A DNA stretch of 64,000 nucleotides from Candidatus Omnitrophota bacterium (GCA_044225175.1 JBGAJA010000004.1:145631-209630); one strand, 5' to 3'; numbered from the stretch's first letter, positions 2,377 through 64,000 are shown. Notes: generated by a model not told the origin, from the letters alone. Numbers and translations are program-made.

Positions 2377-2378
2377 CT

Positions 2379-5088: not shown

Positions 5089-5114
5089 TTTCTAACCTTT
5101 CTTTATCTGTTTAT

Positions 5115-6386
5115 TTAAAATTTAAGATTAAGATCTGCTTGAAACACTGACTGTGGATTCTTGACTGCTTTGATACGCTGGTCCCTATAATAATCAAATC
5201 CTAAAGAAACATTCTTGGTTAAACCATACTGTAGTTCCCATTCATTTCCCTTAACATCTGTAGCACCTCCTAGGCGATCTGAATCGGGAAATGCATCAGG
5301 AAAAGCATCTTTTCCTAAATTAGTGTATTGATACTTAAGCTGCCATTGCTTAGGACCTGCAACTTTTTCATCACCAATTTTAACACCAGCAGCCCAACCA
5401 GTATCGTCATCTTCAACAGCATTGGTAATATTCTTAATATAATCACCAAAAATGGCAAAACGTTCAATAGGTAAAATTTCAATTGGCTTCTTAACACCCA
5501 TTTCTACGGTCAATCCCATGGAATCATAATCATACTTCAAAACAGAACCAGCTAAGGTGTTAGATGAAGAGGTTCCATCTAACGTAATTCCTTTAACACC
5601 ATTGAATCCATAATAATTCCCCGCTAATGTTGCATCAAAAATGCCTTCATTAACTTTAAAACCAGCTTGAGTATATATTAGAAAAGGATCTGTGCGATCA
5701 GATTTATTGTTTTCATCAATAACCCATGCGCCTACATTTCCAAATACTGAGACTAAATCATTGAATTTATGATCTAAATGAACTGCCGCACCTGCAGGAT
5801 TAATGTCCGTATCCCACAACATATCGGAAGTCGTCCATAAATAATCTGATTTAACAAATTTACCAGCAATAACCTTACCCCATGTAAAAGGCTGATATTG
5901 TCCATAAGCATAGTCAATACGGACATCCCCTCTACGGAACGAATCATTAAATGTCATATTAGTTGAACGAGCATCATCAGTTGCAGTTCCGGTGCTATCG
6001 ACTTCAGAACTAGATAAACCAGCTCCAACCTTCCATTGGGTGTTAATCTGATTCTCAAGGCCTAAACGAAGTCTTAAACGTCCCCGTGTGCGGCTTTCTG
6101 TATCATTAGAACGTCTTTCATATTGATATCGAACACGCGCATCACCTTTAAGTGTAGTCTTTTTGACCCAATCAGGAACAACTGCTTTTGCAGAGTCTTC
6201 ATTAATAATTTTTGCATCTTCCGCTATTTCTAGCTTTAATTCGCGGGCTTCATGTTTATCCAAAATACCTTTTTCAACCAATTTCTGGATCAAAGAATCC
6301 ACTTGGGTGGAAGCAGCCCAGGAATTAGCTGGAACAACACTAACCATTGCTACAATAATTGATAACAACATACAAAATCTCTTCAT
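5115..6386 (-). CDS. outer-membrane porin, probably phosphate-selective (OprO/OprP-like), first gene of the pst operon
   Basis: It has a signal peptide (ANSWA|AS) and is beta-rich with alternating hydrophobics. The C-terminus ends ...DLNLKF, the terminal Phe of an OMP. It sits immediately upstream of pstS on the same strand, behind an SD AAGGAGGA. Confidence 0.6.
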   Translation of the reverse strand: MKRFCMLLSIIVAMVSVVPANSWAASTQVDSLIQKLVEKGILDKHEARELKLEIAEDAKIINEDSAKAVVPDWVKKTTLKGDARVRYQYERRSNDTESRTRGRLRLRLGLENQINTQWKVGAGLSSSEVDSTGTATDDARSTNMTFNDSFRRGDVRIDYAYGQYQPFTWGKVIAGKFVKSDYLWTTSDMLWDTDINPAGAAVHLDHKFNDLVSVFGNVGAWVIDENNKSDRTDPFLIYTQAGFKVNEGIFDATLAGNYYGFNGVKGITLDGTSSSNTLAGSVLKYDYDSMGLTVEMGVKKPIEILPIERFAIFGDYIKNITNAVEDDDTGWAAGVKIGDEKVAGPKQWQLKYQYTNLGKDAFPDAFPDSDRLGGATDVKGNEWELQYGLTKNVSLGFDYYRDQRIKAVKNPQSVFQADLNLKF

Positions 6387-8104: not shown

Positions 8105-9160
8105 TTACTGACAAATTCCTTTAGAGCAATGTTGATCTGAAGGGCAAACATTTCGACAGGTCCCGCAATTATTAGCATCAATTTGGGTATTAGTACAAAT
8201 ATCATCACAGATGTCAAAACGACATTGACAGGCTCCTTTGATGCAGGCCATATTAACCGCACATACATTTCCGCATTCACCGCAATTATAATTATCTGAG
8301 GTAGTATTAATACATTTTTCCCCACAGGCTTTATAACCAGCATCTTCACAAAGACAATCACCCTTAAAACATGTTGAATTTGAAGGACAAACAATCCCAC
8401 AGTTTCCACAATTTTTGCGATCATTCTGCGTATCTACACACGTACCCTGACACGTTTCATGTGGACAAGTACATCTTCCATTGGAACAAATAGCTTGAGA
8501 AGGACAAGAATTGTCGCAACCCCCGCAATTATTTGAATCTGATAAACTGTTGATACACTCTCCATAACAACTGATATTATAATCTGAAGAACAGCACACT
8601 CCCTGAACACAACTTTGATCCTTAGCACATCCACCCTGACAATTTAAACACCCCTTCATCTTATCTGAGGGCCCGCAAATACCATTGCAACAAATATACT
8701 CATCACAACCCTCACCATTAGTCACACACATATCATCTATATCCAAACCCGAGACCTTTCCTCGATCATCAATATCTAATTTCTCTCCCACAACTCCATT
8801 AAAGCCCTTGGAATACAAAACATAAAATTTACCGTTGGCACTTTTTAAATAACCATATTCAGAACGCTGCGAGGACAGCGGATCATATAAGGGCCTGTCA
8901 ATTTTAGGGGTCTTAACTTTTGTAAGATATTGAGAGCCTACCGTACTACTTTTAGGTGGGTATACATGAGGTTGGGAAAATATGTAATAAGACGTTACAG
9001 CGGATTCCATGGTCTTTAATTCTCTAATGACTTGAGTTTGCTTTAAAGAATGGACCATGTGAAATGAACCTATTGCCACAGTTAAGATGGCTATACTGAA
9101 GACTCCCAACAATAATAATAGTTGATTTGAAGTAAATGCAGTTCGACAGGATCGATTCAT
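8105..9160 (-). CDS. secreted or membrane-anchored cysteine-rich repeat protein (tandem NNCGxC knot modules)
   Basis: It has an N-terminal hydrophobic anchor. The C-terminal half holds at least 4 tandem ~37-aa repeats: C[IV][DN]x3Dx2NCGxCx2[VS]Cx5Cx2GxCxC. Confidence 0.6.
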   Translation of the reverse strand: MNRSCRTAFTSNQLLLLLGVFSIAILTVAIGSFHMVHSLKQTQVIRELKTMESAVTSYYIFSQPHVYPPKSSTVGSQYLTKVKTPKIDRPLYDPLSSQRSEYGYLKSANGKFYVLYSKGFNGVVGEKLDIDDRGKVSGLDIDDMCVTNGEGCDEYICCNGICGPSDKMKGCLNCQGGCAKDQSCVQGVCCSSDYNISCYGECINSLSDSNNCGGCDNSCPSQAICSNGRCTCPHETCQGTCVDTQNDRKNCGNCGIVCPSNSTCFKGDCLCEDAGYKACGEKCINTTSDNYNCGECGNVCAVNMACIKGACQCRFDICDDICTNTQIDANNCGTCRNVCPSDQHCSKGICQ

Positions 9161-49930: not shown

Positions 49931-50302
49931 TTAAATACGAATGGAACGGGCTTTGATGTACAGCGGAATAAGCGTATAAGGCCCAGGAGGACCATTGATG
50001 TAGAGACTTTTTAAAGTCAAACGATTTGCAGGTAAAAGTTGAATTAAAGCAAATGCAATAAAAGCTAATCCAATAGGCCCTATCCAATGAAAGATTTGAT
50101 TCTTAGCCAATTCCATTGGACTTGCTTTACTAAAACAGCATTCTTTGATGGGGGAAGCTTTTCCATCTTTAGAGGCGCAATGAGAACATATTGGTTTAGA
50201 GGCTTGAATTTGGTTCTTAATTACACAACAGCACAATACATTGGCGATGATAAAAATCAAGCCGGTTAGAACCAAAAATGAGTTTTTTAAAGGTTGCTTC
50301 AT
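49931..50302 (-). CDS. small 2-TM membrane protein with a Cys-rich loop (CCC…CSHC…ECC), putative metal-binding
   Basis: It reads MKQPLKNSFLVLTGLIFIIANVLCCCVIKNQIQASKPICSHCASKDGKASPIKECCF, then a second TM helix. It lies directly upstream of cusBA on the same strand. Confidence 0.35.
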   Translation of the reverse strand: MKQPLKNSFLVLTGLIFIIANVLCCCVIKNQIQASKPICSHCASKDGKASPIKECCFSKASPMELAKNQIFHWIGPIGLAFIAFALIQLLPANRLTLKSLYINGPPGPYTLIPLYIKARSIRI

Positions 50303-50349
50303 ATATCAATTATACCATTCAAATTATCTATTGTCAGACTGGCTTTAGC

Positions 50350-52947
50350 TTAGAAATTCGCATCATTCGAATAATTATCATAATCCGATGCTCTACACAT
50401 TCCATCACTATCACCTGAAGACATATCCGTACACATACCCCCCTCTTTCACTGGAGGGCCTGGATCATAGATACAAGTCAAGCATTTCCAATCAGTCCAA
50501 TGGTCACCAGCCCATGTATTCTCAGGGCATGCATTCATACAATGATTATCATCCACAACTGGATCATAATCACATTTTTCACACTTGGCTTGTTGACAAA
50601 AATCAGCCCTAGTCCCATCTAAAGTTCTACAGCAAGAGTATTTTTCAGGATCTTGGGCAAAATATTGTATACAGTGATTATCATGGCATTCATATATATA
50701 ACAAGGATCCGCAGGGCAATCGGTAGCGACATTACATGTATCTCCAGTATCAGACCCCGTTCCTGTACCTGTTCCTGATCCAGTGGCACTTCCTGTAGAG
50801 GAACCTGTGGAACTACCGGTGGATGAACCTGTCGAACTTCCCGTCGAAGAACCAGTTGAGCTTCCGGTCGATGATCCAGTTGAACTTCCCGTAGATGAGC
50901 CTGTTGAGCTTCCCGTAGATGATCCAGTTGAACTTCCGGTAGATGATCCTGTTGAACTTCCCGTAGATGAGCCTGTTGAACTTCCGGTAGATGATCCAGT
51001 TGAACTTCCCGTAGATGAGCCTGTTGAACTTCCGGTAGATGATCCAGTTGAACTTCCCGTAGATGAGCCTGTTGAGCTTCCAGTAGATGAGCCAGTTGAA
51101 CTTCCCGTAGATGAGCCTGTTGAGCTTCCGGTCGATGATCCAGTTGAACTTCCCGTAGATGAGCCTGTTGAGCTTCCTGTAGATGATCCAGTTGAGCTTC
51201 CAGTAGATGAGCCAGTTGAACTTCCCGTAGATGAGCCTGTTGAGCTTCCTGTAGATGATCCAGTTGAGCTTCCCGTAGATGATCCAGTTGAACTTCCGGT
51301 AGATGATCCAGTCGAGCTTCCCGTAGATGATCCAGTCGAACTTCCAGTCGATGATCCAGTTGAACTTCCGGTAGATGATCCAGTTGAACTTCCGGTAGAT
51401 GATCCAGTTGAACTTCCGGTAGATGATCCAGTTGAACTTCCAGTCGAGGAACCAGTCGAACTTCCAGTCGATGATCCTGTCGCAGTTCCTGAACCACAAG
51501 GTGTGCATTGATGAAGAACACAGCAGAAGTCATCTGCACAGTCTCCTTCATCTATACAAGATTCCTCACCATCACCAGTTGAGCCGCTGTCAGACATATT
51601 TCCCGTGGAACTACCGGTAGATGATCCTGTCGAACTTCCCGTCGAGGAACCAGTTGAGCTGCCTGTAGAGGAACCCGTCGAACTTCCCGTTGAAGAGCCG
51701 GTTGAGCTACCCGTAGATGATCCGGTAGAACTTCCTGTCGAAGATCCAGTTGAACTTCCGGTGGATGATCCTGTCGAACTACCAGTCGATGATCCTGTTG
51801 AACTACCAGTCGATGATCCTGTCGAACTTCCCGTCGAGGAACCAGTTGAACTACCTGTAGAAGAACCGGTTGAACTTCCTGTTGAGGAACCGGTTGAGCT
51901 TCCAGTGGCTGAACCGTCTGAATCATCCGTAGAACTGCCCGTTGATGATCCCGTTGAATCCCCCGTAGACGTACCCGTTGATGATCCCGTCGAACTTCCC
52001 GTCGAGGAACCAGTTGAACTGCCAGTAGATGAACCAGTTGAACTTCCCGTAGATGATCCTGTTGAGCTACCCGTAGATGATCCCGTTGAACTTCCCGTGG
52101 ATGATCCGGTTGAACTTCCCGTAGATGATCCCGTTGAACTTCCCGTAGATGAACCTGTTGAACTTCCTGTGGGTGAACCTGTTGAACTTCCTGTGGAGGA
52201 ACCTGTTGATGTACCAGTCGAACTTCCCGTAGATGATCCCGTTGAACTTCCGGTCGATGATCCTGTTGAACTTCCGGTCGATGATCCTGTCGAACTACCT
52301 GTCGATGAACCTGTTGAGCTACCCGTAGATGATCCCGTTGAACTTCCAGTTGATGAACCAGTCGAACTTCCCGTCGAGGAACCAGTCGAACTTCCAGTTC
52401 CTGTTCCAGTACCGGTTCCAGTTCCCCCTCCACTATCAGCTGGCATTCCACACGTATAAAGAAGTGAGGTAAACGATCCTGGGCAAGTCGCACCAGGCAC
52501 CCCTCCTCGACAATAAGGATTGGGCGGGATAGCAGCATCATTCGTATAATAGATTGGGATATTTCCAGGATTAAGCGGTTTATCCAAATCCACAATCATG
52601 GTAAAGCCTCCACCACCCTGTCTTTGAGCAAAACAAACATTGCTATTGGAACTGTTGGTTGGACAGCATCTATAAACCAAACCATTATTTGGCGTAATAT
52701 TTAAATTAAGGCTCTTGTTAATGCCCACAACATCTGCCCCACCTCCGGAAAAAGGATAATATTTTCCATGGGCCTGTTTATAGTTAAGCTGTGAGTTTTT
52801 AATGGCAATCAGATTACGCAGGGCATCTGTAGAAACGGATCGTTCATAAGTTTTGGTGAAATTGACTAAAGCGGAAGAAGCTAAAATACCTAAAACCAAC
52901 ATTGAAACAAGGACTTCAATTGTAGTAAAGGAAGGTGATTTTCTCAT
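50350..52947 (-). CDS. giant type IV pilin/pseudopilin-like protein with two (SSTG)n mucin-like repeat blocks and Cys-knot modules (865 aa)
   Basis: The N-terminus is MRKSPS|FTTIEVLVSMLVLGILASSALVNF, a prepilin-type methylation motif with Glu at +5. An ~140-aa Cys-containing head follows (YRCCPTNSS, VCFAQRQGGGG, PYCRGG…CPG…YTCGMPA). Next come (SSTG)n, the CIDEGDCADDFCCVLHQCTPCGSG knot, a second (SSTG)n and a Cys-rich C-terminal domain. Confidence 0.6.
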   Translation of the reverse strand: MRKSPSFTTIEVLVSMLVLGILASSALVNFTKTYERSVSTDALRNLIAIKNSQLNYKQAHGKYYPFSGGGADVVGINKSLNLNITPNNGLVYRCCPTNSSNSNVCFAQRQGGGGFTMIVDLDKPLNPGNIPIYYTNDAAIPPNPYCRGGVPGATCPGSFTSLLYTCGMPADSGGGTGTGTGTGTGSSTGSSTGSSTGSSTGSSTGSSTGSSTGSSTGSSTGSSTGSSTGSSTGSSTGSSTGSSTGTSTGSSTGSSTGSPTGSSTGSSTGSSTGSSTGSSTGSSTGSSTGSSTGSSTGSSTGSSTGSSTGSSTGSSTGSSTGSSTGTSTGDSTGSSTGSSTDDSDGSATGSSTGSSTGSSTGSSTGSSTGSSTGSSTGSSTGSSTGSSTGSSTGSSTGSSTGSSTGSSTGSSTGSSTGSSTGSSTGSSTGSSTGSSTGSSTGSSTGSSTGNMSDSGSTGDGEESCIDEGDCADDFCCVLHQCTPCGSGTATGSSTGSSTGSSTGSSTGSSTGSSTGSSTGSSTGSSTGSSTGSSTGSSTGSSTGSSTGSSTGSSTGSSTGSSTGSSTGSSTGSSTGSSTGSSTGSSTGSSTGSSTGSSTGSSTGSSTGSSTGSSTGSSTGSSTGSSTGSSTGSSTGSSTGSSTGSSTGSSTGSSTGSSTGSSTGSSTGSSTGSSTGSSTGSSTGSSTGSSTGSSTGSSTGSSTGSSTGSSTGSSTGSSTGSATGSGTGTGTGSDTGDTCNVATDCPADPCYIYECHDNHCIQYFAQDPEKYSCCRTLDGTRADFCQQAKCEKCDYDPVVDDNHCMNACPENTWAGDHWTDWKCLTCIYDPGPPVKEGGMCTDMSSGDSDGMCRASDYDNYSNDANF
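50765..51490. repeat. imperfect 24-nt tandem repeat array encoding (SSTG)n, block 2 of the 865-aa gene
   Basis: The unit is agtagatgagcctgttgaacttcc / ggtagatgatccagttgaacttcc, alternating about 30 times. Confidence 0.8.
51600..52428. repeat. imperfect 12/24-nt tandem repeat array encoding (SSTG)n, block 1 of the 865-aa gene
   Basis: The plus strand reads gatgatcc[ag]gttgaacttcc[cg]gta… with periodicity. Several frames on both strands stay open across it. Confidence 0.8.
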
Positions 52948-52955
52948 GTTTTAAA

Positions 52956-55316
52956 TTATAAACAATAGTTACAACCACTTACACTTGGACAAGAGGGAGC
53001 AGGATCATCCCCCCCTTCAATTAACGTACAGTCACCCCAACCAGCTGCACCAGAGCAACATTTATACACACCTTCATCAACATCAATACACGTAGTTACA
53101 GGTAAATCGCAATTAGGGTCTGCAGTATGTACACAAGATGTTATACAGCATAACTCTGATATGTGAGGAATAATAGCAAAAAAGGCACAATCTCCGGATC
53201 CGCTTCCAGTCCCAGTCCCCGTTCCCGAACCACTTCCGGTCCCTGTACCTGTTCCCGTACCACTACCTGATCCTGTGCCAGTGCCTGTCCCATCTCCTAC
53301 GTTTTGGCACTTGCCTGCATTGCAATACTGAGTTGCTGCATCACAACAGAAATCTGACGTGGTCGCACAACTGTTCGTAGAGCAGCCTCCACAATTATTT
53401 ATGTCTGTATCAGGATTAATATACATACACGTCTGATCAGGCTGACAACAGCCACCTGAACATTCATAACCAGGGTCTCCACAAACTGCTGGATCATCAC
53501 CGGTCCCCGTTCCTGAGCCTGTTCCCGTCCCGCTTCCTCCATCCCAAGGATCATTTTTACAGTGTCCTGTAATAGCCATATTTTTATTAATTTCAATAAA
53601 TATCAAAGGACTTGTGCTTACGTAATCCCCCGTCCATGTAACGAACCTAGCCCATGGTTTAGCCAGGACTGCAATAATATCTCCAAAATTATAGGATGAC
53701 TGTCCATGACTACTATTGCCATTGACAGCTATAACAGAAGCAAAATCACAATTATCATTATTGACAATCAAAGAATAATTGCTTCCAGTAGCAGTACCTG
53801 TCGAACTCCCCGTCGAGGAACCAGTCGAACTGCCTGTAGATGAGCCCGTTGAACTGCCTGTCGATGATCCTGTTGAACTGCCAGTAGATGATCCTGTTGA
53901 GCTTCCGGTAGATGAACCTGTTGAGCTTCCCGTAGATGACCCAGTTGAACTACCTGTCGATGATCCTGTTGAACTGCCAGTAGATGATCCTGTTGAGCTT
54001 CCGGTAGATGACCCAGTTGAACTACCTGTCGATGATCCTGTCGAACTTCCTGTAGAAGATCCGGTGGCGCTGCCTGTGGATGAACCTGTACCTGATCCGC
54101 AAACAGGGGTACAGAAATGCATGTTACAACAATAATCGTCGTCACAATCATCATCGTCTTCGCAAAACAAATTAGTGTTTGTGGAACCACTTTCATTGTG
54201 ATTTCCAGTTGCTGATCCTGTAGAACTTCCAGTCGAAGACCCTGTTGAACTGCCTGTAGATGACCCGGTTGAGCTTCCCGTAGATGACCCAGTTGAACTG
54301 CCTGTAGATGACCCGGTTGAGCTTCCCGTAGATGACCCAGTTGAACTGCCTGTAGATGACCCGGTTGAGCTTCCCGTAGATGACCCAGTCGAACTGCCTG
54401 TAGATGACCCGGTTGAGCTTCCCGTAGATGACCCAGTTGAACTGCCTGTAGATGACCCGGTTGAGCTTCCCGTAGATGACCCGGTTGAGCTTCCCGTAGA
54501 TGACCCGGTTGAGCTCCCCGTAGATGACCCAGTCGAACTGCCTGTAGATGACCCAGTTGAACTGCCTGTAGATGACCCAGTTGAACTGCCTGTAGATGAC
54601 CCGGTTGAGCTTCCCGTAGATGACCCAGTTGAACTGCCTGTAGATGAGCCGGTGGAACTTCCAGTGGATGAGCCTGTAGAACTTCCGGTTGATGACCCTG
54701 TCGAACTACCCGTCGAAGATCCTGTTGAACTGCCTGTGGATGAACCAGTCGAACTACCTGTAGATGACCCGGTTGAACTTCCCGTTCCAGTTCCAGTCCC
54801 TGTTCCACCCCCTCCAGCAGGCATTCCACAAGTATAGACAGAGGTAATATAATTCCCAGGACAAACCGCCCCACTCTGTCCCCCTCGGCAATAGGGATTA
54901 TGAGTCCCATCAAAATACACAGGCACATTTCCAGGATTAAGAGGAGCATCCAGGTCCAAAATCATACTAAAAGCCCCAACTCCTTGCCTCTGGGCGTAAC
55001 ACACATTATTATTAGCACTGTTCGAGGGACAACATTTATATTTTAATCCATTACTGGGTGTAATGTTTAATCCAAGGTTTTTATTAATATCCGCGATACT
55101 CGCATCTGCTGATCCAGAAGAAGAATAATATTTTCCATGAGACTGCAAATAGCTAAGCTGAGCGCTCTTAATGGCCATTAAATTATGCATAGCATCACGG
55201 CCAACAGTTTTTTCAAATGTTCTTAGGAAGTTAGGAAGGGCAATAGAGACCAAAATCCCTAAAATAAGGATTGTTATGAGGATTTCAATGATGGTAAAAG
55301 AAGGTGTTCTTTTCAT
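52956..55316 (-). CDS. giant type IV pilin/pseudopilin-like protein with (SSTG)n repeats, a Cys knot and an NNCGxC-type Cys-rich C-terminus (786 aa)
   Basis: The N-terminus is MKRTPS|FTIIEILITILILGILVSIALPNF. The head has YKCCPSNS, VCYAQRQG and PYCRGG…CPG…YTCGMPA, paralogous to the downstream gene. It continues with (SSTG)n, CEDDDDCDDDYCCNMHFCTPVCGSG, (SSTG)n and a ~110-aa domain. The tail is CGDPGYECSGGCCQPDQTCMYINPDTDINNCGGCSTNSC…GKCQ, then a Gly/Thr linker and a final Cys-rich segment. Confidence 0.6.
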   Translation of the reverse strand: MKRTPSFTIIEILITILILGILVSIALPNFLRTFEKTVGRDAMHNLMAIKSAQLSYLQSHGKYYSSSGSADASIADINKNLGLNITPSNGLKYKCCPSNSANNNVCYAQRQGVGAFSMILDLDAPLNPGNVPVYFDGTHNPYCRGGQSGAVCPGNYITSVYTCGMPAGGGGTGTGTGTGSSTGSSTGSSTGSSTGSSTGSSTGSSTGSSTGSSTGSSTGSSTGSSTGSSTGSSTGSSTGSSTGSSTGSSTGSSTGSSTGSSTGSSTGSSTGSSTGSSTGSSTGSSTGSSTGSSTGSSTGSSTGSSTGSSTGSSTGSSTGSSTGSSTGSSTGSSTGSSTGSSTGSSTGSSTGSSTGSSTGSSTGSSTGSATGNHNESGSTNTNLFCEDDDDCDDDYCCNMHFCTPVCGSGTGSSTGSATGSSTGSSTGSSTGSSTGSSTGSSTGSSTGSSTGSSTGSSTGSSTGSSTGSSTGSSTGSSTGSSTGSSTGSSTGSSTGSSTGSSTGSSTGTATGSNYSLIVNNDNCDFASVIAVNGNSSHGQSSYNFGDIIAVLAKPWARFVTWTGDYVSTSPLIFIEINKNMAITGHCKNDPWDGGSGTGTGSGTGTGDDPAVCGDPGYECSGGCCQPDQTCMYINPDTDINNCGGCSTNSCATTSDFCCDAATQYCNAGKCQNVGDGTGTGTGSGSGTGTGTGTGSGSGTGTGTGSGSGDCAFFAIIPHISELCCITSCVHTADPNCDLPVTTCIDVDEGVYKCCSGAAGWGDCTLIEGGDDPAPSCPSVSGCNYCL
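53785..54097. repeat. 24-nt tandem repeat array encoding (SSTG)n, block 2 of the 786-aa gene
   Basis: It has the same periodicity and about 13 units. Confidence 0.75.
54205..54815. repeat. 24-nt tandem repeat array encoding (SSTG)n, block 1 of the 786-aa gene
   Basis: The unit is cgtagatgacccagttgaactgcc / tgtagatgacccggttgagcttcc. Codon choice differs from the repeats of the neighbouring gene. Confidence 0.8.
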
Positions 55317-55437
55317 AATTCTTATTTAAAGTATACCCTAAATTTTCAAATTAGACATATAAAATACTGCCTTGCTTGGGGATTTAATTTTCTTTTCTTG
55401 TTTTTTGAAATTAAGTTTTTATAATTAAAATCACTCT

Positions 55438-56589
55438 ATGTTTAATGAGAATGATCCCCTTAATTTTTCCCAAAAATCCCCTGAAAATACAGGCCATGGC
55501 CTTCCCAATATCCTTGTTCCTAAGCAAATTACAACCGCAACTCCTTTAGAAGAAATCCTGGCTTTTGCACGAAAAGAAAATGCCAGCGATGTCCATATAG
55601 TCCCTAATAACCCCGTTATTTTTAGAAAATTTGGCCATCTTGTCAATATGACAACTGATGTCCTGTCAGACAAACAAATCCGTTATATGTTAATTAAATG
55701 CCTGCCTACCAAAGTTATCGAAACATTTGATACAACAGGCGACATAGAATATGTTCATACAATTACAGGATACGGTCGTTTTCGCATGACCATTGTAAAA
55801 CAGCGCTTAGGATGGGAGTTAACGGCCCGTTTAATCGTATTGGAGATTCCTAGATTCGCCGCTTCTGGAATGCCCACCCCTTGTACAAGCTTAATCAAAT
55901 GGAGCCAAGGTATTGTATTAATTACAGGACCTGCAGGGGCTGGTAAAACTACGACCTTGGCAACATTGGTTGAAATGATTAACCAGCGTCGCTATGACCA
56001 TATTATTACCCTTGAACAACCCATTGAAATTCTCTATGAACCTGAAAATTGTCAGATTTCCCAAAGGGAGATTTTTCTTCATACGGCCTCACAGGAAAGC
56101 GCCTTGCGCTCTGCCCTACGCGAAGATCCTGATGTCATTGTCGTTGGGGAATTGAAAGACTTAGTTACCACTCAACTTGCTATTATGGCTGCAGAAACCG
56201 GCCACCTAGTATTAGCTACCATGAATACGGTCAATGCTGTCCAAACTATTTCGAGACTTGTAGAGTCCTTCCCTTCCGACGAACAATCAGTTATTCGTAA
56301 TTTAGTATCGGAATCACTGCGAGGGGTTATCTGCCAGCAGTTAGTCCCTAAGAAAAATGGCACCGGTGTCGTTTGTGCTTATGAAATATTATTTAATACA
56401 GTTTCCGTGGCCAATCATATTCGGAAAGGTACAATTGGACAAATTGAGAATGTTATCATAACTAGCAAGGGACTAGGGATGTCTTTGATGAGCCACTCTC
56501 TGCAAAATCTTGTTGCAACGGGAGTTATTGCCGCAGATGAAGCTCGAGAGAGAATCGCTGAAATTGAATCACAAACTAATAAGAATTAA
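55438..56589 (+). CDS. PilT-family type IV pilus retraction-type ATPase, divergent paralog with a degenerate His-box
   Basis: It has a Walker A motif GPAGAGKTTTLA and an Asp-box ITLEQPIEILYE. The Walker B is DVIVVGELKD. The His-box is GHLVLATMNT, where the second His is replaced by Asn. It has AIRNLIRE-like VANHIRKG and an N-terminal ~35-aa extension. Confidence 0.75.
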   Translation: MFNENDPLNFSQKSPENTGHGLPNILVPKQITTATPLEEILAFARKENASDVHIVPNNPVIFRKFGHLVNMTTDVLSDKQIRYMLIKCLPTKVIETFDTTGDIEYVHTITGYGRFRMTIVKQRLGWELTARLIVLEIPRFAASGMPTPCTSLIKWSQGIVLITGPAGAGKTTTLATLVEMINQRRYDHIITLEQPIEILYEPENCQISQREIFLHTASQESALRSALREDPDVIVVGELKDLVTTQLAIMAAETGHLVLATMNTVNAVQTISRLVESFPSDEQSVIRNLVSESLRGVICQQLVPKKNGTGVVCAYEILFNTVSVANHIRKGTIGQIENVIITSKGLGMSLMSHSLQNLVATGVIAADEARERIAEIESQTNKN

Positions 56590-56591
56590 TT

Positions 56592-57635
56592 ATGGCTGGA
56601 ATAGACTACTTTTTTAATATTTTAATTAATAAAAATGGCTCGGATTTGCACCTGGAAGAGGGACAAAAGCCCAAAATCCGTCTTCACGGTCAAATGACTG
56701 AAATCGACAATCAGATTCTAACTAGACAGAATATGATTGAATTGATTGCTAATATTGTCACTAGGAAAGACTGGAGTCATTTTGAAAATAAAGGTGACCT
56801 GGACTTTGCTTATGCTTTTGGAAACCAAGCCCGTTTCAGAGGAAATTTTTATCGACATGTGAAAGGTCTAGGAGCAGTTTTCCGCCTAGTCCCTTCTCGC
56901 ATATTTTCCATGGAAGAACTTGGTCTTCCTGAATGTGTAATTCAATTTCCAAAATGGCGCTCAGGCTTAATTCTTATTACAGGATCAACCGGAAGTGGTA
57001 AATCCACGACATTAGCAACAATCATTGATTATATTAATCAAAATTATGCTTATAAAATCGTAACTATTGAAGATCCTATTGAATTTACTCATCCTAGAAA
57101 AAAATCCATTATATCTCATCGTGAGGTAGGCCATGATACAGCATCCTTCGCCAGTGGTTTACGTGCTGCCATTAAAAGCGATGCAAATATCATTATGGTT
57201 GGTGAAATGCGTGACATAGAAACCATGGAACTAGCATTGAATGCCAGTGAAATGGGTATTTTAGTATTTAGCACTCTGCATACGAGTTCAGCGACTAAGA
57301 CTATTGATCGCATTCTGGATACTTTTCCTAATAATCGAAAAAATCAAATCCGATCCATCTTGGCTAATAATCTTAAAGCAATTCTCACTCAGCAGTTAAT
57401 TCCAAGCATCGACTTAAGCTGCCGATATGCTGCGTTTGAGATTCTCCTTAGAACTCAAGGACTAGCTCATATTATCCAGTCTGGGGAGACCTTCCGTTTA
57501 AACAGCGAAATTCAAACCAATCGCTTTCAAGGAATGGTCCTTATGGATGACTCATTATTAGATTTAGTTCGATCTGGAAAGATCAGCAAAGAAATGGCTC
57601 ATTTAAGAGCAGTTGATAAACAGAAATTTATGTGA
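56592..57635 (+). CDS. pilT: twitching-motility ATPase PilT
   Basis: It has [22 protein letters not shown] and [17 protein letters not shown]. The His-box is [10 protein letters not shown], and the AIRNLIRE equivalent is LAHIIQSGE. The 347-aa length is typical. It starts 3 nt after the upstream paralog. Confidence 0.85.
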
Positions 57636-59244
57636 GACTTGGACCCGCCTTAACCAAATCTTTTCCCTGTGGTGTATCTGTAAAAATCTCAAAGTTCTCA
57701 ATAAACATTGCCCCTAATTTTCGAGCAGCAGCATCATAATCATTTTTGTCAGACCACAGATGACGAGGATTAAGAATATTAGAGTCCATCCCATTAACCT
57801 TCTTTGGAATTTGAAGGTTAAAAATGGGCAATGTTTCAAACTCAGCTTTGTCCAGAGAACCATCTAGAATAGCGTCGATAGCTAAACGATTGTCTTTTAA
57901 AGCAATGCGATGCCCCACGCCATATGGTCCTGCAATCCAGCCCGTATTCAATAAATATGCAGACGCTTGATGCTCTTGCATCTTTCGGGCCAAGATTTGA
58001 GCATATTGGGTCGGATGAACTAATAAAAAAGCTTTTCCAAAACATGCGGAGAACGTTGCTGTTGGTTCTTTGACTCCTAATTCTGTGCCAGCAACCTTGG
58101 CTGTATAACCACTTAAGTAATGATACATAGCCTGTTCTTTTGATAATTTAGAAACAGGCGGCAAAACACCATAAGCATCACAGGCTAAAAAAATAATCTT
58201 GGAAGGATGCCCCCCCTTAGAAATAGGCTTTACTATGTTTTCAATATGATTAATAGCATAAGAAACACGGGTATTCTCAGTCTTTTGCTTGGATGAGAAA
58301 TCTACATTTCCTTCTTTATCTACAACACAATTCTCTAATAAAGCATTTCGACGGATCGCTTGATAAATCTCCGGTTCACGCTCTTTGGTAAGGTCTATAC
58401 ATTTGGCATAACAGCCGCCTTCAAAATTAAAAACACCTTGCTCATCCCATCCATGTTCATCATCACCAATCAATGCACGCTTGGGGTCCGTCGATAAAGT
58501 TGTCTTTCCTGTTCCAGATAATCCAAAGAATAAAGCTGTATCTCCATTTTGACCTTGATTTGCAGAACAATGAAAAGCACCAATCCCCTTTAATGGAAGG
58601 AAATAATTCATGATCGAGAAAATACCTTTTTTGATTTCCCCCCCATACCAAGTGCCTCCAATAACCGTCATTCTCTGGGTCATATTAAATGCAATGTAAA
58701 CTTCTGAATGAAGATTCCACTTTTGATAATCTTTACAACTTGTCTTGCAGGCATTAAGAATGGTCCAGTCTGGCTTAAAATTTTTGATCTCTTCCTCGCT
58801 TGGAACGATAAACATATTCTTAAAAAAATGGGCCATCCACGCAACCTCAGTCACCAAACGGACCGATATTCGCGTATCCTTATTTGCACCGCAAAAACCA
58901 TCCATCACATAAAGTTTTTTACCATTAAGCTGTTCAATGGATATATTTTTTAAGTGGTCCCACGTCTGAGAAGAAATGGGTTTATTATCAGAACCACTGG
59001 CTAAACCATTGGCCCACCAGACTGTATTTTTAGTCTGCTCATCTTCGACGATGTATTTATCTTTAGGAGATCGCCCCGTAAACTTTCCCGTATCCACATT
59101 GACTGCTCCCAATGTAGTAAGGACAGCTTTTTCATACCCCACTAAATTAGGGTTAGTTTCATGCACAAAAAGATCTTCAAATGAAAGGTTATAAAATACT
59201 TGGTCAGGCTGTATAGACAAATCTTTTAGAGCTAGATTTTCCAT
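57628..59244 (-). CDS. pckA: phosphoenolpyruvate carboxykinase (ATP)
   Basis: It has a kinase-1a motif [11 protein letters not shown] and the 538-aa length and motifs of ATP-type PckA. Confidence 0.9.
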
Positions 59245-59251
59245 TGGGCTT

Positions 59252-59629
59252 TTAGGAGGATTTCTTAGGAGAATTAATGTGCTTATTGATTGCTGCTAAC
59301 AATATTTCCGGCTTGAAAGGTTTAACAATATATTCCTTAACGCCTTCTACTTTAAAAATTTCAGCCATTCCTTCTTTTGAAGTTAAAACAATGATGGGTA
59401 TAGAAGAACCTTGAGGGACTTTTTTTAATTCAAAAACAAATGTATACCCATTCATTTTTGGCATTTGCACATCTAATACAATCAAATCGGGCGATTGTTT
59501 CTTTATTTCATCTATGCCTTCTTGGCCATCAACAGCTACATGGACTTCATAATCTTGGGATTCTAGAAATGGTTTAACAACTTTTATCAACGTTGGGTCA
59601 TCATCAATCACTAAAATTTTCTTAGACAT
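59252..59629 (-). CDS. single-domain response regulator (CheY-like)
   Basis: The 125-aa product has ILVIDDDP…[14 protein letters not shown]…LTSK. Confidence 0.75.
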
Positions 59630-59649
59630 AATAAACTCTCCTTGATCTA

Positions 59650-60309
59650 TTATTCGTCTTCAGAGACCTTAGGCAAAGGACTCATCAGCATTTCAACAAC
59701 CATTCTCTTCTTGTCATCAATCTCAAAACTAATTTCAAATTTATCAGTCTGATCTTTACTATATTCCACCCCATCTAATACCGAATTGATAGCCGTTCTA
59801 AAATGAGACATTTCTAAATCAGCGTAACCTAAGCGTGCTAATTCTTTTTTGAAATATCCTGCAATTAAATTAGATATCGCTCCGATCCCATCTAATACCT
59901 CATCATCATCGTCGTAATCAATATAAGGATATTTAAAAAGCCTGAGCATTTCCGGCACAAAAGTTCTTTCAATGTAAACAATGATCAAACCGATTGGCTC
60001 ATTATTCTTTAAAGCAGCATTGTCTTTATAATAATGAATGACTGATAGGAAGGTTGTGGTATTAAATTTCTCCATCGCATCAATGCGCATGCGATTGACA
60101 AATTGAATGATAGCCCGTTTTTCAATGGTTGGTTCTGAAGAAAACTTTTGCTCAGATTTTTCATAAAAAACTTTTTTAACAGCAGCAGCTAAAGCAAGGG
60201 CCATTGTAAAAAGTGGTTCACTATAATCCCCCCTGACCTTTGGCCGATTGCTTAAGTTCTCATGGGCAATTTGTCTAAATTGTGGAAGTTCGGGAACAGG
60301 TTGTGCCAT
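59650..60309 (-). CDS. hypothetical protein flanked by two CheY-like genes, possibly a CheX/CheC-like phosphatase
   Basis: The 219-aa product has the segment DGIGAISNLIAGYF, which weakly resembles the CheC/CheX E-x2-N-x3-G active-site motif. Support is otherwise limited to gene context. Confidence 0.3.
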   Translation of the reverse strand: MAQPVPELPQFRQIAHENLSNRPKVRGDYSEPLFTMALALAAAVKKVFYEKSEQKFSSEPTIEKRAIIQFVNRMRIDAMEKFNTTTFLSVIHYYKDNAALKNNEPIGLIIVYIERTFVPEMLRLFKYPYIDYDDDDEVLDGIGAISNLIAGYFKKELARLGYADLEMSHFRTAINSVLDGVEYSKDQTDKFEISFEIDDKKRMVVEMLMSPLPKVSEDE

Positions 60310-60319
60310 TAATAAATGA

Positions 60320-60697
60320 TTACTTTAAAAAAGGTCTAACTGCTTGAATTAATTCTTCAGCCTTATAAGGTTTAACAATATAACCAGCTAAAGCAGGATT
60401 AATGTCTTTAGCTAATTTTCTATTTTCTTCTGAACCTGAAGCTGTAACCATAATGATGGGAATGTTTGACAAGACAGGAATTTTCATCATCCCAGCCATT
60501 AATTCAATGCCCGTCATTTTAGGCATTTGCCAGTCTAGCAATACGAGACTGATATCTTGATAATTACTGGCAAGAATTTCAAGAGCCTGTTCACCATCTT
60601 CGGCTTGCAGTATCTCTTGATTAACCTCCGACTTAACTAAAAGACGGATCAAAAGCTTTCGATCTAGGGTTGAATCATCGACAATTAAAATTTTCAT
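60320..60697 (-). CDS. single-domain response regulator (CheY-like)
   Basis: The 125-aa product has ILIVDDS…LVLLDWQMPKMTG…VTAS. Confidence 0.75.
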   Translation of the reverse strand: MKILIVDDSTLDRKLLIRLLVKSEVNQEILQAEDGEQALEILASNYQDISLVLLDWQMPKMTGIELMAGMMKIPVLSNIPIIMVTASGSEENRKLAKDINPALAGYIVKPYKAEELIQAVRPFLK

Positions 60698-60766
60698 AAT
60701 GGCCTATTCTAACGAAATTGATATATGCTAGCAATCTATTTTAATATGAAATTCTCAACAAAATCT

Positions 60767-61216
60767 TTATTGCTTTACCTTTACTATGATTCCGCTATGG
60801 AAATCCTCTTTAATTTTACTTAATAGTTCCTTAGCTGCAGTTTCATCTTTCAAATTACCTATACGAACTCTATACCATGTTCCCTTTGGGCCTAGATCAC
60901 TAATCTCTATATAAGAGTTCTCATACCCTTGTTTCTTTAAGGTTTCTAAAGCAAGATTTGCTCTTTTTTGATCTTTAAAAGAATAGACTTGAACACTAAA
61001 ACCAGCTTCTTTTCCATGCTCTGGACTAGTGACAATCGCGGGAGAAGGAACAGGATCTTTTTCTGTAGAAGCAGCTTGTGAAACAACAGGGGCCTGAGCA
61101 ACCACATTATCCATTGTTACTTTATCAGTGGGCATCTTTTTTGCAGATAATAATAAAACAACTCCTGCGACAACACCAACTCCAACAATCCACAACCTAT
61201 TATTTTTATTTACCAT
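60767..61216 (-). CDS. SPOR-domain (septal peptidoglycan-binding) membrane-anchored protein
   Basis: It has an N-terminal TM anchor, a linker and a C-terminal SPOR-like fold (FSVQVYSFKDQKRANLALETLKKQGYENSYIEISDLGPKGTWYRVRIGNL). Confidence 0.65.
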   Translation of the reverse strand: MVNKNNRLWIVGVGVVAGVVLLLSAKKMPTDKVTMDNVVAQAPVVSQAASTEKDPVPSPAIVTSPEHGKEAGFSVQVYSFKDQKRANLALETLKKQGYENSYIEISDLGPKGTWYRVRIGNLKDETAAKELLSKIKEDFHSGIIVKVKQ

Positions 61217-61300
61217 AAATCCTCCAGTTAAGAACTCTTTGTTGTCACAAGCTTAAAAACATTTTAGATTTTTTCTATTTTAATTAAACTTTCTATAATC

Positions 61301-62080
61301 TCAAGCGGCTTCTTGTTTTGGGTATTGACCATTTAATACGCCTTGAATCATAGCTTTCACTTCATCAGAAAAATCTTTTTCTAAAACCCAATGCAAATAC
61401 GCTGGGTCTTTTTTAGCAATCACCTTTAAAGGTTCTTTACGGGCATATTTCCCGAAAGTCATATATAAATCACCATTCCACCAACGAAATTTACGATCAC
61501 TATCGAAATACTCGCTATGAGGCTCATAAGCAAACACCTTAAGATGTTCAATTTCAAGTTTCCCTTCACAATAACGCTTGATCTGTTCAGCAAGGATTTG
61601 TAAAGAAGCTTGAGCATCTGCCAAAGCTGTGTGAGCATCTTTGAGATCTTCATTGCAATAAAAAGTAAGAGCTGTGGTTAAATCACGTTTATGATTCAAG
61701 TGATAAATCTTCTGGGCATCATAGATAGAACGCTGGCTATAATCAAACTGAAGACCTGCATCTGCCATTTCTCTTGCCAGCAAAGGCAAATCGAAACGCT
61801 CAACGTTAAAACCGCCAATGTCTGCGTCCCCAATAAACTCAAGGACTTTTTTGGCAATACTTGCAAATGTCGGGGCATCCTTCACATCCTCTTGGGTAAT
61901 ACCTGTAATCTCAGTCACTCGAGGAGGAATGGCCATCCCTGGATTGACCTTTGTCTCGTATTCTTCCCTCTGACCATCGGGGGAGAGTTTAATAAGCGCG
62001 ATCTCAATAATACGGTCCTTTTCAATCCATGTACCGGTTGTTTCTAAATCAAAAACAACTAAAGACTTAGTTAGTTTCAT
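61301..62080 (-). CDS. DEDDh 3'-5' exonuclease (DnaQ/RNase T-like) with a C-terminal extension
   Basis: It has an Exo I motif LVVFDLETTG, Exo II NVERFDLPLL and an Exo III H…D (HTALADAQ). Confidence 0.7.
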   Translation of the reverse strand: MKLTKSLVVFDLETTGTWIEKDRIIEIALIKLSPDGQREEYETKVNPGMAIPPRVTEITGITQEDVKDAPTFASIAKKVLEFIGDADIGGFNVERFDLPLLAREMADAGLQFDYSQRSIYDAQKIYHLNHKRDLTTALTFYCNEDLKDAHTALADAQASLQILAEQIKRYCEGKLEIEHLKVFAYEPHSEYFDSDRKFRWWNGDLYMTFGKYARKEPLKVIAKKDPAYLHWVLEKDFSDEVKAMIQGVLNGQYPKQEAA

Positions 62081-63126
62081 CTTTTTACTTTCTTTTTTAA
62101 GCGGGCCTGGGCGTTTAACGTGATGGCTTGTTCTAGAACATACTGAATAAGATCTTGGTAACTCATCCCTGCATGTTTTGCAGCTTGGGCCATTTCATCA
62201 ATATTCGCAATACAAGGATTCGCATTGGGCTCAATAATATAAACTTCACCATCCTGGGTTAAACGTAAATCAAATCTTAAATAGCTTCTTGCATCTAGAG
62301 CTCGATAAGCACGGCGACATAAATCATTGATCTTTTTGATAGTAGATTTATCTAGGTCTTTAGCAGGAACGCTATCGATCCCCCATCGTTTACGATACTT
62401 ATCATCCCACTTCGCTTTATAGGTCGCAATACGAGGCTGTTCATCAGACATCTTCTTAAAGACCATTTCTCGCGGAGGAAGAATAGTTAGTTGACGATAC
62501 CCCATGACCGTTACATAAAGCTCACGGCCATTAATATATTCTTCGGCAATTGCATCCATAGACATATTCTGATGAATAAATTTCACCCGTTCTATGAAAG
62601 CTTGAGGAGTTTCAACCATGGAAGCCATGGAAATCCCTCGGGAAGCTTCCTCACACAATGGTTTGATAAAAGCCGGAAGTTGAAATTTAGAAGGAAGAAA
62701 AACCCTGCTTCCCTTTGAAAATTCATAAAATTTAGGAACTTTAATACGATGATAACTAAATATTTTTTTATGCAGAGCTTTGTTATTACATAAATACAAC
62801 ACCCCTGACGAAGCCCCTGTAAAAGGAATACCAACAATCTCCAGTAAAGAAGCTAGATTCTTCTCAAGATGGGTCTGATCATTAAAGACTTCCATCATAT
62901 TAAAGATAACATCCGGTGGATTTTCTTTGATTTCTTCAAATAGAGGCGAGATATCGTTATAAACACCTAACAGACTGACTTCATGGCCTAAATCTTTGAT
63001 GGCCTTAAAAACATCTTTCTCCGTATACATATTATCCGGATCAGCAAACTCTTCCTTGTAATCATAACCACGAGGTTTCTGATAAGGACTAAAGAAAAAC
63101 ATTAAAACTTTTAATTTCTTTCTCAT
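62077..63126 (-). CDS. ATP-grasp ligase (D-Ala-D-Ala ligase / RimK-like fold)
   Basis: The 349-aa product has a pre-ATP-grasp N-domain (KVLMFFFSP…), a central lysine (AFIKP) and the C-terminal E/N metal ligands IIEPNANP. It overlaps both neighbouring genes by 4 nt. Confidence 0.6.
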   Translation of the reverse strand: MRKKLKVLMFFFSPYQKPRGYDYKEEFADPDNMYTEKDVFKAIKDLGHEVSLLGVYNDISPLFEEIKENPPDVIFNMMEVFNDQTHLEKNLASLLEIVGIPFTGASSGVLYLCNNKALHKKIFSYHRIKVPKFYEFSKGSRVFLPSKFQLPAFIKPLCEEASRGISMASMVETPQAFIERVKFIHQNMSMDAIAEEYINGRELYVTVMGYRQLTILPPREMVFKKMSDEQPRIATYKAKWDDKYRKRWGIDSVPAKDLDKSTIKKINDLCRRAYRALDARSYLRFDLRLTQDGEVYIIEPNANPCIANIDEMAQAAKHAGMSYQDLIQYVLEQAITLNAQARLKKKVKR

Positions 63127-64000
63127 GTTCTTTTGGGATCACCTTTGTACCAGCCGGTATGGACATAATTCAAGACCAGGCTCGTTACATATACAGATAA
63201 TTGCATCAAACTCGTTGAGGGGTCAGTGCTTACAATCATATTAAGTTGCTTGGCCCTTAAACTGATGTTCTTAAGCAAATCATTAATCATATATTTGCGC
63301 TCACCCGTACATCGGTCAACACTATTTAAAAGATTTTTGCTGTGAGTGCGAATCAAAGATTCTGCTGTTAACAAATTCTTGTTCTTTCGTCGTTCTTTAT
63401 TAAAAGCTAACCATTCTTCATAAGTTAAACTTTTAAAGATCTTATGTAACTGCACATCGTGAAAATCAGGCTGCTCTTCCTGCTCATCGACTTTTTTACG
63501 TCGATAATATTTATCCAAGGTAATAGAAACCTTTTTTTGATTCCAAAGCTTCTTTCCCCTTTTCTTTAAAGGAGTCTTGCCTTTAATTTCGTTCATTAAA
63601 GTATCTACGAAATTTAACTTCTCAAGTGCTTTCCAACCCTGATACTTCTCTTTCCAGTTTGAATCTGGCGTCAACCAGACAGCAAATGTCTCTACAAAAT
63701 CCTCGTCCGGATGATATTGAGCATAAAATCCATCTAGATGACGGACAAAACTTTTACTGTAAGGTTTAAATTTATATGTATCTCCATATGTTTCTGCAGA
63801 AGACCCAAAAACTATTTTCCAATCTTTGCGTTCATGCAAACCATACGCATAAGAATAGGCATGACCAGCCTCATGGCGAAGCAATTGCATACACCAAGCT
63901 TTGCCTTCACCTTCTGCTTCCAGCATCATTTTATGTTCTAATTTTATTAAGGCAGGATGGGCTAAATAAAAAGGAATGCCTATGACTGTTTCTCCCTCGG
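63123..64000 (-). CDS. HExxH-motif protein, putative zinc metallopeptidase/amidase; the gene's 5' end lies beyond the window end
   Basis: The frame is open from 64000 (…GETVIGIPFYLAHPALIKLEHKMMLEAEGEGKAWCMQLLRHEAGHAYSYAYGL…), so the track ATG at 63929 is internal. It contains HEAGH. Confidence 0.4.
   Translation of the reverse strand, partial: EGETVIGIPFYLAHPALIKLEHKMMLEAEGEGKAWCMQLLRHEAGHAYSYAYGLHERKDWKIVFGSSAETYGDTYKFKPYSKSFVRHLDGFYAQYHPDEDFVETFAVWLTPDSNWKEKYQGWKALEKLNFVDTLMNEIKGKTPLKKRGKKLWNQKKVSITLDKYYRRKKVDEQEEQPDFHDVQLHKIFKSLTYEEWLAFNKERRKNKNLLTAESLIRTHSKNLLNSVDRCTGERKYMINDLLKNISLRAKQLNMIVSTDPSTSLMQLSVYVTSLVLNYVHTGWYKGDPKRT

Follow-up and report, generated by a model that had tools for sequence, protein, structure and literature searches.

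We analysed a stretch of 64,000 nucleotides from a Candidatus Omnitrophota bacterium (GCA_044225175.1, JBGAJA010000004.1:145631-209630; the whole stretch is called the window below), in which positions 50,350 to 57,635 hold two long genes of the type IV pilin family and two genes for PilT-family ATPases. The pilin-family genes, P786 and P865, are two open reading frames (ORFs) on the minus strand, 8 nt apart, and are divergent from the ATPase pair. They were found where a preliminary description of the window, made from the sequence alone, had placed them, and the homology of their N-terminal heads to pilins extends over the whole head. The intergenic region that had been described as common to both gene pairs was found as well. 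We consider it probable, with some reserve, that both proteins are modular type IV pilins, most likely adhesins displayed on a pilus; of this, display and adhesion are what we infer. The genes of the locus are as follows:

52956-55316, minus strand: P786, putative modular type IV pilin gene, 786 aa, stop codon in the coordinates (ORF, homology of the head to stand-alone pilins, AlphaFold2 (AF2) model)
50350-52947, minus strand: P865, paralogous putative modular type IV pilin gene, 865 aa, stop codon in the coordinates (ORF, head related to the P786 head)
55317-55437, no strand: AT-rich divergent intergenic region between P786 and PilT', 121 bp
55438-56589, plus strand: PilT', PilT-family paralog, 383 aa (TIGR01420, alignment to 3jvu)
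56592-57635, plus strand: PilT, PilT-family ATPase, 347 aa (TIGR01420, alignment to 3jvu)

Both long proteins are built in one common order, as the preliminary description had read it: a Cys-containing pilin-like head, an array of SSTG repeats, an acidic Cys knot, a second SSTG array and a Cys-rich C-terminal part that differs between the two. The paralogy of the heads was also borne out, since their first ~170 residues are 61% identical. The knots are 56% identical (E 2e-11) and have the common pattern C-x5-C-x4-CC-x4-C-x2/3-C, and the C-terminal parts are unrelated to each other. Heads and knots were aligned separately, because whole-protein BLASTP of the paralogs was uninformative owing to composition masking. 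Ser, Thr and Gly (STG) together make up 58% of P786 and 69% of P865, and STG-rich stretches are confined to these two proteins within the window. From the N-terminus on, the parts of P786 are:

55299-55316, minus strand: leader MKRTPS, with the predicted prepilin-peptidase cut after Ser6 and before Phe7; profile position 7 is residue 1 of the mature pilin
54858-55298, minus strand: pilin module, aa 7-153, with alpha1, a beta-sheet and Cys 95/106 and 143/152, ending at the 'CP' of the family (family alignment A2, AF2)
54210-54821, minus strand: STG block 1, aa 166-369, (TG)4 followed by 47 SSTG units; Tandem Repeats Finder (TRF) periods of 24/48/96 nt with 74-83% matches
54099-54209, minus strand: acidic six-Cys knot, aa 370-406, C-x5-C-x4-CC-x4-C-x3-C, paralogous to the P865 knot
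53787-54098, minus strand: STG block 2, aa 407-510, 23 SSTG units
53529-53786, minus strand: non-repetitive module, aa 511-596, 2 Cys; AF2 pLDDT (predicted local distance difference test) <50, modelled without an alignment here
53298-53489, minus strand: Cys-rich module A, aa 610-673, 12 Cys, with an 'INxxxDxNNCGGC' motif
53190-53297, minus strand: (GT/GS)n linker, aa 674-709
52959-53189, minus strand: Cys-rich C-terminal module B, aa 710-786, 12 Cys, no family and no homolog found

Those of P865 are:

52480-52947, minus strand: leader MRKSPS and pilin module, aa 1-156 (head alignment, profile search, alignment A2)
51604-52443, minus strand: STG block 1, aa 169-448, 58 SSTG units and a few TSTG, SPTG and DSTG variants
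51496-51603, minus strand: acidic six-Cys knot, aa 449-484, paralogous to the P786 knot
50740-51495, minus strand: STG block 2, aa 485-736, 57 SSTG units
50353-50739, minus strand: Cys-rich C-terminal module, aa 737-865, 16 Cys, unrelated to the end modules of P786 and present in two independent short-read assemblies

The N-termini read MRKSPS/FTTIEVL in P865 and MKRTPS/FTIIEIL in P786 (the slash marks the predicted cut), with Phe at +1, Glu at +5 and a hydrophobic alpha1N of about 20 residues (FTIIEILITILILGILVSIALP and FTTIEVLVSMLVLGILASSALV). They are thus of the prepilin type that had been claimed for them. We placed the predicted cleavage between Ser6 and Phe7 because the family profile aligns with solved pilins from residue 1 of the mature protein. 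Both leaders are six residues long and basic, and both have Ser at -1. According to a recent review, prepilin leaders end in Gly or Ala (PMC10191384). Among 251 members of the pilin family with a recognisable motif, the residue at -1 is Gly in 129 (51%), Ala in 87 (35%) and Ser in 34 (14%). Since Ser occurs at this position in 34 members, it appears to be a trait of the family and not the sign of a plain signal anchor, and the cognate prepilin peptidases of this family may have relaxed specificity.

The relatives of the heads were collected with a profile made from the alignment of the two heads (A1). Run with HMMER against the full set of 1.84 billion representative proteins, it gave 5,781 matches at E<=1e-3, of which 165 had E<=1e-10. 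The best matches (E 9e-29 to 1e-22) were aligned across head positions 1-157, and the best 150 of the 165 are stand-alone pilins of 86-203 aa. Named homologs come mostly from Candidatus Omnitrophota and are labelled as 'type II secretion system protein' or as 'prepilin-type' N-terminal cleavage proteins. The 251 members with the motif have a median length of 144 aa, two of them exceed 200 aa, and STG repeats are absent from the family members retrieved; P0193 (274 aa), which lacks a recognisable motif, looks like an upstream fusion or a protein with a miscalled start. In the family alignment (A2), Glu5 (E11 of the precursor) is invariant, P28 and the Cys pairs 95/106 and 143/152 are conserved, and the members terminate at a 'CP' that corresponds to residues 152-153 of P786. 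The heads are about 30-45% identical to the family. P786 and P865 run 620-700 residues past the end of the family, with discrete Cys-rich modules. The small Omnitrophota pilins (P0017, P0154, P0002 and P0003) therefore resemble the heads in homology over their whole length (to 9e-29), in Glu5, in both Cys pairs and in Ala, Ser or Gly at -1, but P786 and P865 are 5-6 times longer and carry the STG repeats. Other searches yielded little: a word-indexed search with one head gave as its sole match an unrelated PilA-like protein, over the N-terminal third of the head; the two-head profile matched in genome contigs solely the N-terminus of an Acinetobacter pilin; and the heads had no match in the metagenome contigs searched.

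When profile A2 was compared with the sequences of the PDB, it aligned from mature residue 1 with M. xanthus PilA (8tj2, 1e-17), Geobacter PilA-N, GspG and the N. gonorrhoeae pilin, and over 7-130 with Thermus PilA4. The AF2 model of P786 residues 1-150, made with a 61-sequence alignment, had a pLDDT of 74-96 and the lollipop shape of a long helix and a beta-sheet (H9-60, H74-81, E91-96, E105-110, E116-121 and E142-144), and the lollipop fold is indicated by this model together with the conserved Cys 143/152. Past residue 155 the pLDDT fell below 50. Pilins also ranked first in a Foldseek search against the PDB, with weak E values of 0.01-1 on which we do not rely. Judged by homology that covers the whole head and goes beyond the N-terminal helix, the heads are complete pilin modules.

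Of the stand-alone relatives that have the same extra cysteines (CC...C), P0003 (182 aa) is the closest; it has Ser at -1 and shares a '...CG(A/M)P' tail with the heads. It ends in '...SCGAPFTG', and the window proteins ('...TCGMPAGGGG') begin their repeats exactly where P0003 ends, which pins the fusion point. On its contig (ENA ERZ27296333) the P0003 gene lies two genes downstream of a gene for a DsbD-type thiol-disulfide transporter. Another family member of 182 aa from a metagenome, P0047, carries at its C-terminus a Cys-rich 'CGGTCADLNTDNSNCGACGMPCGAGKTCQSGVC' module ('NCGACG...C'), so that the grafting of Cys-rich sequence onto this pilin family appears to recur.

In the loci that we looked up, the gene of the family stands third in a cluster of five pilins. 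P0154 and P0017, on two contigs of metagenome-assembled genomes, belong to an operon with PilM_2, two small genes, a secretin, PilB (MshEN+T2SSE), PilC (T2SSF) and five pilins. The heads of the window proteins match the third pilin of this cluster, with 52-70 bits versus at most 37 bits for the other pilins; in the loci L003 and L004 the third-pilin gene lies in the cluster downstream of pilC. The five-pilin arrangement is found also in L014 and L015, around the best match P0002, and there the family is represented twice in tandem, by the paralogous genes 2 and 3. Directly upstream of the cluster in L014, positions 1944-5900 are a region of ~4 kb without long ORFs and with two short called genes, which is probably an rRNA operon.

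The SSTG arrays contain 115 exact units in P865 and 70 in P786. TRF found periods of 24, 48, 72 and 96 nt with 74-84% matches, and the longest exact DNA repeat within 50350-55316 is 98 nt. The 12-mers that encode SSTG are of 52 distinct kinds in P865 and 31 in P786, with a mean pairwise identity of ~70%, and the first Ser is coded by both AGY and TCN codons. Among the units in register, 115 of 126 in P865 and 70 of 71 in P786 (185/197 overall) still encode SSTG at ~3.4 nt differences per 12-nt unit; an equal number of random changes would leave SSTG in at most 8 units. The deviations from the unit consensus fall on third codon positions and on the coupled first and second positions of the first Ser codon. 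Because SSTG is kept far more often than under random change, the SSTG peptide appears to be under purifying selection in this frame. The synonymous scrambling of the codons and the modest length of the longest exact repeat likewise argue against a collapse of the arrays or a wrong frame.

A collapse of the repeats in assembly had been named in the preliminary description as something that could undo its reading, and this doubt was settled in part. The short-read Logan contig L001 is 100% identical to window positions 54618-64000 (9383 nt, 0 mismatches), and its end lies 165 nt inside the first repeat of P786. Two runs gave the contigs L012 and L013, in which the final 182 codons of P865 are present, in frame with the repeat; these contigs break off within the second repeat of P865. 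The contigs thus give independent confirmation of the reading frames and of the outer flanks of the gene pair; they break inside the repeats, and the array lengths and joins are as assembled. The arrays also contain alternative-frame and opposite-strand ORFs of 118-393 aa that lie wholly inside them, encode for example 'ELPVDDPV' repeats and carry a risk of being miscalled. We rejected such ORFs as genes (50783-51511, 51605-52459 and 53779-54135, all on the plus strand, and others), as they are open in the repeat alone and the variation fits the SSTG frame. NCBIfam 'FliH' matches on P786 and P865 lie in the repeats and were treated as low-complexity artefacts.

The Cys count of every module is even (6+6+2+12+12 in P786 and 6+6+16 in P865), as expected of disulfide-bonded domains outside the cytoplasm. 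No family of Pfam or NCBIfam fits any module, and for the knot there were only weak suggestions, Conotoxin_I2 (E 0.18) and Dickkopf, at E 0.18-0.6. A search of 5.8 billion proteins with the concatenated non-repeat modules gave no match at E<=0.01. The 'INxxxDxNNCGGC' motif of module A is weakly similar (E 0.004) to a protein with Stig1 repeats encoded at 8105-9160, and the Stig1 model PF04885 itself did not match the C-terminal regions of P786 and P865 even at E<=1.

This protein (minus strand, 351 aa) has the only other pilin-like N-terminus in the window, MNRSCRTA/FTSNQLLLLLGV..., with Gln at +5, followed by four Stig1-type repeats (PF04885, E 5e-17). The N-terminus is in register with the pilin profile, but weakly (hhalign probability 5%). 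The protein may be a further modular pilin, one that lacks Glu5 and possibly caps the tip.

Both ATPases pass the TIGR01420 (PilT/PilU) cut-off of 319.1 bits, PilT' with 339.6 and PilT with 389.6 bits, and both align end to end with P. aeruginosa PilT (3jvu; E 2e-73 and 1.6e-81, respectively). They are 32% identical to each other. The two tandem PilT-type ATPases of the preliminary description were thus confirmed, and its view that one of them is canonical was not, as both His boxes are altered. The pair is like P. aeruginosa PilT in the Walker motifs: Walker A (GPAGAGKTT in PilT' and GSTGSGKST in PilT) and the Walker B Glu (VGELKD and VGEMRD) are intact. It is unlike it in the His box, in the Asp box of PilT' and in AIRNLIRE. 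PilT' keeps the first His of the His box and has Asn in place of the second (TMNT in GHLVLATMNT), and its Asp box is changed from ED to EQ (LEQPIE). In PilT the first His is replaced by Ile and the second is kept. AIRNLIRE is degenerate in both, as VANHIRKG in PilT' and LAHIIQSG in PilT, and neither paralog carries the canonical set of Asp box, His box and AIRNLIRE. The complementary changes of the His boxes hint at a heteromeric or specialised retraction motor.

Orthologs of PilT' with 56-61% identity are carried by seven metagenomic loci. In the two that we examined closely, L007 (9989-12403) and L011 (9956-12177), the two genes again lie in tandem, with both His-box changes retained (~59% identity). 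A block of genes for phosphoenolpyruvate carboxykinase (PEPCK), a CheX-like protein, a response regulator, a SPOR protein, RNase T and a Ddl-like protein at 57628-64000 of the window is syntenic with L007 2951-9917 and L011 2402-9841. This block lies upstream of the pilT pair and divergent from it in L007 and L011, and downstream and convergent in the window. Upstream of the pilT pair, its position is held by the pilin and copper-efflux genes in this genome only.

Among known systems, modular pilins are closest to the proteins of the window. The preliminary description had held that the architecture could not be attributed to any described family; this went too far, since modular pilins, with modules grafted at the C-terminus, have already been described and occur widely: a survey of databases counted more than 1,200 of them with 264 architectures, up to 860 aa long (Raynaud et al. 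2021, PMC8179133). P786 and P865 share with them the class III signal, a complete small pilin module and non-pilin C-terminal modules. Adhesion by a module displayed on the pilus has been demonstrated for modular pilins, and adhesive C-terminal modules are established for PilB (vWA module) and PilC (lectin module) of S. sanguinis (PMC8179133, PMC10191384). The described modular pilins have, however, a short linker and a recognisable domain signature, whereas P786 and P865 have two SSTG linkers of 104-280 residues per protein and small orphan Cys-rich units that have no Pfam family or homolog; they also differ by the Ser at -1 and are known from sequence alone. No mucin-like or serine-rich stalked pilins were found in the literature. 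Thus, with the modular-pilin concept itself already described, what sets P786 and P865 apart are the SSTG spacers of ~100-280 residues and the orphan Cys modules.

The large minor pilins CofB and TcpB of type IVb pili and GspK of the type II secretion system, which are located at the tip, also combine a pilin module with extra structural domains, and in CofB a flexible linker is followed by beta-domains (as summarised in PMC8179133). They belong, in contrast, to other pilin families, form tip trimers or lack Glu5 (GspK), and have neither low-complexity repeats nor Cys-knot modules. A functional analogy, and nothing closer, may be drawn to a further group of adhesins. The serine-rich repeat adhesins of Gram-positive bacteria (Fap1, GspB, SraP) have very long Ser-rich, heavily O-glycosylated repeats as a stalk for a binding region. 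They differ in having an LPXTG sortase anchor, SecA2/Y2 export and SAS(T/E)-type dipeptide repeats and in lacking a pilin module; none of their anchor, export or repeat features is found in P786 and P865.

For modular pilins displayed on a pilus, the reading that we favour, the following course may be proposed. The prepilins would insert into the inner membrane, and a prepilin peptidase encoded elsewhere would cut them between Ser6 and Phe7. As subunits of low abundance, they would then be built through alpha1 into a type IVa pilus, either at its tip or thinly scattered over its shaft; because Glu5 is retained, they should be able to polymerise and need not be a tip cap. The SSTG spacers are predicted to be flexible, probably disordered and possibly O-glycosylated; no glycosyltransferase or O-oligosaccharyltransferase was identified in the window, where not every ORF was scanned. 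The spacers would hold the disulfide-bonded end modules tens of nanometres off the filament, where these might bind ligands on surfaces or on partner or prey cells, and the paralogs would share the type of stalk but differ in their binding heads. Extension and retraction would be driven by the PilB of the cell and the PilT pair. A bolder version of this reading, about which our doubts outweigh our confidence, is that P786 and P865 are the first examples of a distinct class of 'stalked' pilins. In these, knottin-like and orphan disulfide-rich heads would be held up to ~100 nm off the filament by near-perfect SSTG arrays, 300-530 residues long and probably glycosylated. Such pilins might serve as a retractable 'fishing line' with which an ultra-small, probably epibiotic bacterium captures its partner or prey.

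Several observations weigh against pilus-displayed modular pilins. The N-termini stay below the curated cut-offs of the N-terminal methylation models, a check that the preliminary description had proposed: PF07963 (N_methyl) gave 15.0 and 19.3 bits with a cut-off of 21.2, and TIGR02532 gave 14 bits with a cut-off of 16.3. Family members in bona fide type IV pilus operons likewise score only 'weak' here. The Ser at -1 is non-canonical when set against the Gly or Ala of the review (PMC10191384). In the 64-kb window we saw no prepilin peptidase (Peptidase_A24), PilB, PilC or secretin and, in accord with the preliminary description, none of the pilB, pilC, pilD, pilM-Q and gsp genes; part of the ORFs was scanned with Pfam for this, and several were judged by N-terminal sequence and size. 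We found no precedent in the literature for low-complexity spacers of ~100-280 residues in a pilin, and an appendage of ~600-700 residues must pass the secretin together with the filament. The end modules have neither a homolog nor a confident structure, and a binding role for them is therefore purely what we infer. Finally, the flanks fetched for the seven PilT' loci, which extend to at most 10 kb on each side, contain no ORF that is pilin-like or rich in STG (0/7). Because of this, and because the flanking block has moved, we regard the juxtaposition of pilin and pilT genes as a rearrangement specific to this genome. Their adjacency may allow co-regulation, but it is not evidence of the dedicated module with the PilT pair that had been suggested earlier.

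Some of these points would be explained if the pilin module were only an inner-membrane anchor, or part of a short pseudopilus of the type II secretion kind, with the stalk spanning the periplasm or envelope and the Cys-rich modules acting in the periplasm or on the surface of the cell. Proteins of this kind would resemble archaeal binding proteins with class III signals or the non-filament 'prepilin-type' proteins of bacteria of the Planctomycetes-Verrucomicrobia-Chlamydiae (PVC) group. The sub-threshold N_methyl scores, the Ser at -1, the lack of assembly genes seen nearby and the difficulty of picturing an appendage of this length in a secretin fit such an anchor, as do the NCBI name 'type II secretion system protein' and the presence of GspG among the top PDB sequence matches. 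We nevertheless hold it to be unlikely. The operons of the family contain secretin, PilM and MshEN-PilB, the machine of a filament that crosses the outer membrane; Glu5 and a complete head with both Cys pairs are retained, which would be needless in a simple anchor; and the only type IV pilus machinery in the window is the PilT pair, retraction-type ATPases that type II secretion systems lack.

The opposite deviation from pilus-displayed modular pilins is a 'hairy' filament, in which P786 and P865 would be the major subunits, each with its stalk, and would form a bottle-brush, mucin-coated pilus. It could be argued from Glu5, from the best PDB matches, which are major pilins (M. xanthus PilA, Geobacter PilA-N, GspG and the N. 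gonorrhoeae pilin), and from the presence of two tandem paralogs, which may be compared with the heteropolymeric major pilins of S. sanguinis (PMC10628169). Judging from known type IV pilus geometry, however, ~600-700 extra residues per subunit at an axial rise of ~1 nm would be sterically extreme and could not pass the secretin. The family, moreover, corresponds to the third gene of a five-pilin cluster, which is not obviously the major pilin, and the divergence of the heads from the family is as expected of accessory paralogs, which makes the 'hairy' filament quite improbable. Less credible still, to the point of being very improbable, is that the genes result from mis-joined or collapsed repeats or are decaying and unexpressed. 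The Logan short-read assemblies do break inside the repeats at both ends, and P786 has no record as a called protein. Against this, no exact repeat is longer than 98 nt, so that the region is unambiguous for k-mers or reads above that length; independent assemblies contain both flanking ends (L001; L012 and L013); and both genes show head, STG array, knot, STG array and Cys module in one frame without stops. The almost exclusively synonymous variation of the units fits long-term purifying selection and not a pseudogene.

Almost all Omnitrophota have type IVa pili, whose presumed role is attachment to hosts or prey, and members of the phylum are presumed to be host-dependent or predatory (PMC10066038). 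If P786 and P865 are indeed built into pili, they would be candidate attachment factors for this group, and the principle of modular pilins, so far one of compact domains grafted on, would widen to include very long mucin-like stalks with several small disulfide-rich modules. It would also follow that the pilus machine and its secretin can export subunits with very long disordered appendages, which raises the question of how this is done. The end modules without detectable relatives may be new small binding folds, and the frequent Ala and Ser at -1 in the family bear on the specificity of prepilin peptidases. These implications are drawn from a single genome, in which the architecture is, as far as can be seen, unique.

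As to the surroundings of the pilin genes, the 121-bp intergenic region at 55317-55437 contains no sigma-70-like site that scores 9/12 or better in a simple scan. A sigma-70-like promoter candidate with a near-consensus CTGACA, a 17-nt spacer and TG-n-TATAAT (11/12, extended -10) lies at 50309-50337, directly past the P865 stop. It is followed by an ORF of 123 aa (49931-50302, minus strand), which is hydrophobic and Cys-rich (CCC..., CSHC and CC motifs), matches no Pfam family and precedes cusB/cusA. The ORF probably encodes a small membrane protein that binds metal and belongs to the copper-efflux operon. We considered and rejected this ORF and cusBA as part of the pilin unit, since the strong promoter-like site separates them from the P865 stop. 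The GC content is 0.43-0.46 over 44-56 kb, compared with about 0.37-0.40 in most of the window.

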